Part shown: positions 29,385-29,582 of the stretch, in pieces
Layout of the letters: each line of letters begins with the position of its first letter
Position numbering within the stretch: position 1 is the stretch's first letter
NCBI GenBank assembly: GCA_022843095.1
Contig: JALHOH010000001.1
Location: 150,001 to 182,000, forward strand
Reading direction: 5' to 3'
Length of the DNA stretch: 32,000 nucleotides
Origin: Candidatus Saccharimonadota bacterium
Lineage (GTDB): Bacteria > Patescibacteriota > Patescibacteriia > 2-12-FULL-60-25
Made by a program: the position numbers and the translations under genes
The notes under the pieces: generated by a model
The model's input: only the letters and a program-made list of their open reading frames with translations
The model's database searches: none
Told to the model about the DNA's origin: nothing

Positions 29385-29582
29385 TTCCCTTGCCCTCGGA
29401 ATCGTCCGGGTAGGCTTGAACAGAAATGTGGCAGATCCGGTCTCTGGCTACGGTCAGACGCCCCTCCACAAATCGCCGTAGGATGCATCCTGGCCGAAGA
29501 CAGGAAGCGCCCCACGGGTTCAAGCCTTTCCGGAGGCATCCCGCCGTTCGGACGTCCTTTTCAAACACCCCCACAAGGGAAG
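29385..29582 (+). ncRNA. about 200-nt structured 5' leader of island module 2 (riboswitch-like architecture, unclassified)
   Basis: A 17-position long-range helix (29405-29421 with 29518-29534, one mismatch) closes a 96-nt multi-stem domain. Internal hairpin at 29475-29494. Confidence 0.5.

Follow-up and report, generated by a model that had tools for sequence, protein, structure and literature searches.

D2, the domain formed in the untranslated leader of operon 2 (orfC-orfD), is a genuine RNA structure under selection. Its conserved core comprises the closing helix P1 (6-7 bp that include the palindrome TCCGGA, then one mismatch and 8-10 bp) and the hairpin P2 with an invariant 22-nt apex; a further hairpin, P3, is a lineage-specific add-on. 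A second domain, D1, of which D2 is a shortened paralog, forms the 5′ domain of a highly structured RNA of ~480 nt that is transcribed from a neighbouring, near-identical promoter. As to its function, we put at about even the chance that D2 acts in cis as an unclassified RNA element that a protein recognises. It is known from only two lineages (that of the DNA analysed here and that of a metagenomic contig, L069), and its partner and regulatory outcome we infer.

The leader element and its setting

The window, the whole 32,000-nt stretch of DNA that was analysed, carries rpoC, rpoB and a rodZ-like gene (HTH_25 and Glucodextran_B domains) on the minus strand (Table 1). Between rpoB and the rodZ-like gene lies a 3.8-kb stretch (~27240-31030) in which G+C is 60-64%, compared with 52-58% in the surroundings. 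This GC-rich stretch holds four plus-strand ORFs with strong SDs and clear codon-position G+C periodicity. The promoter that a sequence-only reading of the DNA had placed upstream of the operon 2 leader is present (TTGACA-17-TAGGGT), with a predicted transcription start at ~29381-29386. This promoter P2 and promoter P1, which precedes operon 1, are near-identical and have CTTGACAAAATC in common (repeat search).

The whole stretch is unusually structured: the orfB coding region with the terminator (28840-29345, plus strand) folds into a chain of near-perfect hairpins with z = -9.5 (z = -4.0 for its equivalent in L069), and folding energy by itself is therefore not specific to the leader. The raised G+C is retained in both lineages and may stem from selection on RNA structure, not from a recent transfer. 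Hexamer palindromes were considered as the cause of the structure and rejected, their excess being slight (19.8 per kb in the stretch vs. 17.2 elsewhere).

Table 1. Features of the GC-rich stretch and its flanking genes, in window coordinates.
Feature	Position	Strand	Remarks
rpoC	19621-23589	-	
rpoB	23608-27075	-	
Promoter P1	27511-27539	+	TTGACA-17-TAGATT
Large structured RNA, ~480 nt	27572-28052	+	downstream of promoter P1; D1 is its 5′ domain; L069 2246-2724
D1, paralog of D2	27576-27716	+	P1 of 7 bp, C·C mismatch, 10 bp; encloses 97 nt with P2 and P3
orfA	28079-28801	+	SD and codon-position periodicity
orfB	28911-29279	+	SD and codon-position periodicity
Intrinsic terminator of operon 1 (orfA-orfB)	29307-29332	+	11-bp stem, then T-run; ortholog at L069 4310-4334
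Promoter P2	29350-29378	+	TTGACA 29350-29355, 17-nt spacer, TAGGGT 29373-29378
Leader 5′ end	29385-29392	+	pyrimidine-rich UUCCCUUG; predicted pairing with CAAGGGAA at 29574-29581, just 5′ of the SD (MFE)
D2 P1, 5′ arm	29405-29421	+	UCCGGG, U mismatch, AGGCUUGAAC; covariation
D2 P2 hairpin	29423-29474	+	fold; apex 29440-29461 GTCTCTGGCTACGGTCAGACGC, UACG tetraloop, identical in L069
D2 P3 hairpin	29476-29517	+	fold; contains GGATGCATCC; lineage-specific
D2 P1, 3′ arm	29518-29534	+	GUUCAAGCCU, U mismatch, UCCGGA
Linker to orfC start	29535-29592	+	possible alternative hairpin 29529-29553; SD 29583-29588
orfC	29593-30675	+	360 aa, ORFan, basic C-terminal tail; GC1/2/3 =.70/.46/.73; gene 3′ of the D2 leader
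orfD	30644-30814	+	small membrane peptide
Third module	30856-31036	+	promoter TTGACG (30856-61)-17-TACGGT (30879-84); RNA of ~145 nt from 30891
rodZ-like gene	31031-31729	-	HTH_25 and Glucodextran_B domains

The sequence-only reading had proposed a long helix between TCCGGGTAGGCTTGAAC (29405-29421) and GTTCAAGCCTTTCCGGA (29518-29534), and its account of this helix holds in every detail: 16 of the 17 positions are paired, one of them as G·U (29410/29529), the remaining position is a U·U (29411/29528), and exactly 96 nt are enclosed. A repeat finder independently picked up the same helix in an extended form (29398-29421/29518-29541). Of the local stems described within it, GTGG at 29428-29431 and CCAC at 29466-29469 do pair, inside the predicted P2, but a hairpin at 29475-29494 is not predicted; the fold makes GGATGCATCC the 5′ strand of the longer P3 and not a hairpin of its own. 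The AAGGAG SD was correctly placed, 49 nt past the helix, and is followed by the orfC ATG at 29593.

The pairing of the two ends of the leader, UUCCCUUG with CAAGGGAA, is a tentative prediction; the folded L069 leader has an analogous CUUUC/GAGAG pairing. The linker sequence is not conserved in L069. Here the MFE fold offers an alternative hairpin (29529-29553) that uses a TCCGGA-like palindromic UUCGGA at 29548-29553; it has no proper U-tract and is not conserved.

The domain as a whole (29398-29541) folds with an MFE of -70.7 kcal/mol (z = -5.0), and none of 200 shuffles was as stable; for the entire 208-nt leader, z = -3.1. A 17-position helix with at least 16 pairs arose in one of 300 dinucleotide shuffles of the leader. 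The D2 helix alone is thus weakly beyond chance, and it is unremarkable across the 32-kb window. It stands above chance because of its conservation and covariation, described below.

The leader is also untranslated, as the sequence-only reading had required: there was no coding periodicity, and no ORF is conserved across the region. A 56-aa ORF within it (29426-29596) was rejected as coding, being Arg-rich, without an SD and not conserved in L069. Both orfA and orfC start with ATGA, such that out-of-frame upstream ORFs (27675-28082 and 29426-29596) stop on their start codons. This overlap is probably a coincidence, neither upstream ORF looking coding by composition or conservation.

Compensatory changes in an ortholog and a paralog

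L069 is a 9.2-kb contig whose gene order matches that of the window (rpoB, a GC-rich stretch, a rodZ-like gene and ftsK), and it carries orthologs of all four ORFs and all three promoters; the counterpart of promoter P2 reads TTGACA-17-TATGGT (4368-4396). The proteins of the stretch evolve fast, with identities between window and L069 of 25% (orfA), 38% (orfB), 36% (orfC) and 35% (orfD), compared with 69% for the flanking RodZ-like protein. At the DNA level, the leader-1 RNA is 0.76 identical (as a fraction of the longer sequence), rodZ 0.69 and the four ORFs 0.50-0.58. The noncoding leader-1 RNA is therefore the best conserved part of the stretch. Two ORFs are additional in L069: one of 121 aa (1780-2145) between promoter 1 and the large RNA, and one of 65 aa (4548-4745) between D2 and orfC. 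The placement of the RNA domains therefore varies: they need not open the transcript or immediately precede the same gene. A separate conserved noncoding block (27242-27400; L069 ~1392-1520), with for example GCGATTCGTCATCATCGC and GTGATCGGGTCTAGCGACAC, lies upstream of rpoB, just past a bidirectional terminator (27224-27241).

None of orfA, orfB, orfC and orfD matched Pfam, PHROGs, PADLOC or NCBIfam. When 1.8 billion cluster representatives were searched exhaustively with HMMER, a single true homolog of orfC emerged, P0003 (E = 3.7e-16, 35-37% identity), found on two Logan contigs; a second candidate, P0004, was discarded as a repeat protein. Word-indexed protein searches with orfC, orfA and P0003 retrieved the queries themselves only. 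AlphaFold2 models of orfC, alone and with P0003, were unusable (pLDDT 35-36), and on comparison orfA and orfC were rejected as paralogs of each other. Both end in basic low-complexity tails, that of the L069 orfC homolog being RGG-like (SRRNRGRNGNGGGGRIRG), and judging from their sequences both are candidate RNA binders.

Other relatives were scarce. The 90% clusters of RpoB, RpoC, RodZ, FtsK and RecA were all singletons, and the one extra strain (L095), which is near-identical to that of the window, came from the cluster of orfB only. No relatives of the RodZ-like protein were found in the contigs of species-representative genomes; a leader-1 21-mer had no match in the species-representative genome collection, another had none in viral contigs, and BLASTN searches of phage and plasmid collections with the region gave no match. 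Two short-pattern searches gave chance matches only. The pattern GTCCGG..TGTGGC..TCCGGAG occurred 68 times in viral contigs, with a best flanking helix of 7 bp vs. 10 bp in the window, and a 19-mer from the P2 apex occurred 24 times in metagenome contigs, where similarity ended at the 19-mer.

The D2 ortholog in L069 (4419-4508) folds with z = -5.8, and D1 of L069 with z = -6.9. D2 has diverged further than D1 between window and L069, with an identity of 0.48 of the longer sequence vs. 0.80. Even so, the pairing persists. In L069, the 5′ arm of P1 consists of CCGGAA, an A·C mismatch and GGCUUGGG, paired with CCCAAGCC and UUCCGG. From window to L069, two A-U pairs of P1 become G-C, the G·U and the U·U both become A-U, and the sole mismatch is shifted by one position. 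The 22-nt P2 apex is identical in L069 (4455-4476). The closed multi-stem domain of the sequence-only reading is therefore conserved in part: P1 and P2 are kept, but P3 is absent from L069, where P1 encloses 47 nt vs. 96 in the window. In L095, D2 differs from the window at two positions, both in P3, and both leave P3 folded (a U·G becomes U-A, and a bulged C is lost).

The window itself holds a second instance of the domain. The arms of D1 form a long-range inverted repeat (27576-27597/27695-27716) downstream of promoter P1, and D1 folds with z = -5.9. Folded independently, D1 and D2 arrive at the same architecture in the same alignment columns: a P1 of 6-7 bp with TCCGGA, a 1x1 mismatch and 10 bp, followed by a single A, a long P2 hairpin with a YNCG tetraloop and a second hairpin, P3. 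A plain MAFFT alignment also puts the two P1 helices in one register. D1 folds better on the plus strand (-86 kcal/mol) than on the minus strand (-73 kcal/mol), which fits an RNA with G·U pairs in the sense of transcription.

A covariance model trained on the two D1 sequences alone, for which E-values are rough, retrieved the D2 copies as its best non-self plus-strand matches with exact boundaries (24.5 bits, E ~1e-3, for L069; 23.4 bits for L095; 19.2 bits, E ~0.016, for the window). Covariance-model scans found no further copies of this type in the window or the related loci. There are thus two per genome, and a third was ruled out.

We counted covariation over 23 pairs, those of P1 and the P2 apex, in five copies (two lineages plus the near-identical strain, and two paralogs). 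Over all pairs, 92.7% of cells are paired and six pairs have changed on both sides; five of these six belong to P1, where the paired fraction is 90.6%, and the P2 apex pairs in every copy. When the register was slid by moving the 3′ partners 1-3 columns, pairing fell to 27-57%, with 0-2 double-changed pairs. With two lineages, two paralogs and very few independent events, too few for an R-scape-type statistic, the count is good qualitative evidence but no statistical proof. Within this small sample D2 behaves as a conserved structured RNA, its pairs being kept by compensatory substitutions. The search for compensatory changes in homologous leaders that had been suggested for the helix thus came out in its favour: ortholog and paralog both keep it through double substitutions, and it is a genuine RNA pairing under selection in a leader that is not translated.

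The sequence of D2 is also conserved beyond what pairing needs. The internal mismatch of P1 is kept at position 7 or 8 in every copy, the TCCGGA of the 3′ arm is invariant and the 22-nt apex is identical, amid proteins that are 25-38% identical.

These comparisons bear on two further explanations. D2 might be a decaying, functionless copy of part of D1 that was duplicated along with its promoter and whose helix persists by recent ancestry. D2 is indeed shorter and more variable than D1, has P3 in one lineage only and receives modest scores from the D1-only model. The duplication, however, is older than the split between lineages whose RodZ proteins are 69% identical; since then double substitutions have left P1 paired and the 22-nt apex has not changed, and both L095 differences preserve P3. 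We therefore consider such decay unlikely.

We give very little credence to an element acting as DNA, whose inverted repeats would be paired operators, mark a recombination site or bound a miniature transposable element. Both arms of every copy do contain the DNA palindrome TCCGGA, and they are inverted repeats ~100 bp apart. But the inner arms differ by compensatory changes, which means that pairing is preserved and not a binding sequence, and the G·U pairs favour the plus strand as RNA. Moreover, arm spacing differs widely between orthologs (96 vs. 47 nt), no further copies occur in the window or related loci, and the region has no transposase, integrase or recombinase. An integron attC site or MITE was rejected on the same features: two copies per genome only, inner arms that differ, and a region without integrase or transposase.

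Riboswitch, protein-binding leader or processing site

The sequence-only reading had offered a riboswitch or a protein-binding leader. Of the two, the riboswitch-type reading is unsupported, and a protein-binding leader is plausible and preferred. As a metabolite- or ion-sensing riboswitch, D2 would have P1 closing an aptamer, and a ligand would stabilise P1 and alter downstream expression. Its outline is suggestive: a closed helix with internal stems sits in a 5′ leader ~50 nt before an SD, a TCCGGA-like palindrome that occurs three times (29405, 29529 and 29548) permits alternative pairing of the 3′ arm of P1, and two copies before two operons could co-regulate them. Against this, the architecture is not that of a conserved aptamer, given an ortholog without P3. 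The three-way junction has linkers of A, G and none in the window, without conservation between D1 and D2. With junction strands of 0-1 unpaired nucleotides, none of them conserved, there is no obvious ligand pocket.

Nor does the proposed expression platform stand up. In neither the window nor L069 does a terminator-like site separate D2 from the next start codon, and in both the SD is unpaired in predicted MFE folds with P1 formed, leaving neither a terminator nor an SD-sequestering helix. Downstream lie fast-evolving ORFans that bear no mark of a metabolic or transport role, and in L069 the element precedes a different, 65-aa ORF, which leaves no recurrent gene association. D1, the paralog, forms part of a 480-nt RNA and in L069 comes after an ORF, and the closed-helix architecture recurs both in that RNA domain and in a stand-alone small RNA. 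We consider a riboswitch very unlikely.

The sequence-only reading could not match D2 to a known class, and Rfam 15 gave no match either, a further point against a riboswitch. At the gathering threshold, the window gave a tRNA at 6176 only. At E <= 10, a search of 27000-31200 gave nothing but noise over 29385-29592 or leader 1, and no family overlapped D2; at E <= 1, the L069 region gave nothing.

The reading that we prefer treats D2 as a cis-acting RNA handle read by a protein. Recognition by a protein is suggested because TCCGGA, the positioned mismatch and the P2 apex are all conserved beyond the needs of pairing. The reader might be encoded in the stretch itself, where orfA and orfC, whose tails are basic or RGG-like, are candidates, or it might be an RNase specific for double strands. 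By binding or cleaving D2 it would match the stability or translation of the operon 2 transcript to the large RNA made from operon 1. Two observations fit less well. For an RNase, P1, with its 17-18 positions and a mismatch, falls short of the length of a canonical RNase III substrate unless stacking on P2 or P3 extends it. The regulatory target is ambiguous because in L069 D2 precedes the 65-aa ORF and D1 follows the 121-aa ORF.

A narrower possibility is an RNase III-type processing or stability site, in which P1, possibly stacked on P2, is cleaved or protective and sets the half-life of the transcript with no dedicated binder. P1 is a near-perfect duplex of 17-18 positions that keeps its single mismatch at position 7 or 8, a geometry that resembles the RNase III sites of phages and of the pnp leader, and the transcripts of the stretch are structured throughout. 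The conservation of the 22-nt apex and of TCCGGA, however, exceeds what a generic double-stranded substrate needs, and the helix is shorter than two full turns, which stacking of P2 or P3 could lengthen. We give this possibility a modest, minority weight.

A cluster of structured RNAs and its relation to known systems

D1 opens a much larger RNA. The ~480-nt transcript downstream of promoter P1 folds with z = -8.4 (z = -12.5 for its L069 ortholog), and RNAalifold finds 157 consensus pairs, of which 30 are preserved by compensatory changes on both sides and none is broken. The RNA matches nothing in Rfam and lacks coding periodicity. Within it, an invariant helix pairs the SD-like UGGAGGAGGA (27733-27742) with UUCACCUCCA (27866-27876), which resembles the 3′ tail of 16S rRNA; both strands are identical in L069. 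From its sequence, this helix is a possible SD/anti-SD mimic.

A third module lies at the far end of the stretch. Its RNA opens directly with a 20-bp closing helix and has a U-rich tail that runs into the stop codon of the rodZ-like gene, which is convergent to it, with a terminator-like site (31009-31028) near its end; it is conserved in L069 (~6305-6490) with compensatory changes. A literature search found no published description of such an RNA.

Three promoters of the same type thus each launch a transcript with a domain closed by a long helix (the 480-nt RNA, D2 and the ~145-nt RNA). Tentatively, and with less confidence than we place in protein recognition of D2, this stretch, centred on RNAs that are conserved far better than its four ORFans, could be an undescribed ribonucleoprotein system of a bacterial lineage with small genomes, with D2 tying operon 2 to it.

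If real, D2 would represent a new family of structured RNA without a match in Rfam 15, in a lineage without close relatives in the collections searched. It comes with an unusually clear internal control, in that paralog and ortholog both covary. Its larger value is as a pointer to a cluster of three covarying RNAs, including the ~480-nt RNA with its 30 compensated pairs. Large bacterial RNAs with extensive structure and no known function are rare, and their study has repeatedly opened up new biochemistry. D2 also carries a caution for annotation: a picture of "P1 plus junction" drawn from a single sequence is no evidence for a riboswitch.

Among known systems, the three-way-junction aptamers of riboswitches (purine, TPP) resemble D2 in their P1/P2/P3 layout, 5′ UTR position and size (~140 nt). 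In contrast to them, D2 has an unconserved junction of 0-1 nt, a dispensable P3, no expression platform and no metabolic genes. The msr-msd of retrons is likewise a promoter-proximal RNA with paired ends (a1/a2-like inverted repeats), internal hairpins and a downstream ORF. A retron ncRNA was rejected, however: the 360-aa protein downstream of D2 has no reverse-transcriptase (RVT) or other Pfam domain (E <= 0.1) and no match to a defence system in PADLOC.

The RNase III sites of phage T7 early mRNA and the rpsO-pnp leader share with D2 a long, near-perfect duplex that lies in a leader or between cistrons and has a conserved internal mismatch. The D2 helix is shorter (17-18 positions) and closes a branched domain instead of forming a simple hairpin, and its cleavage is hypothetical. 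Protein-binding leaders, such as ribosomal-protein leaders and phage operator hairpins, are like D2 in being conserved stem elements of 5′ leaders with no ligand pocket, with sequence conserved beyond pairing and with copies before co-regulated units. Unlike them, D2 shows no mimicry of a target RNA and no Rfam leader match, its downstream genes are ORFans, and its binder is only proposed.

The ~480-nt RNA that begins with D1 finds its counterparts in OLE, GOLLD, ROOL, HEARO and raiA, which are also multi-domain RNAs with extensive covariation, and a further likeness is that it is better conserved than the neighbouring proteins. It differs from them in matching none of their Rfam models and in being known from two lineages only; it also directly precedes ORFs, and one of its domains has been duplicated as a separate leader.
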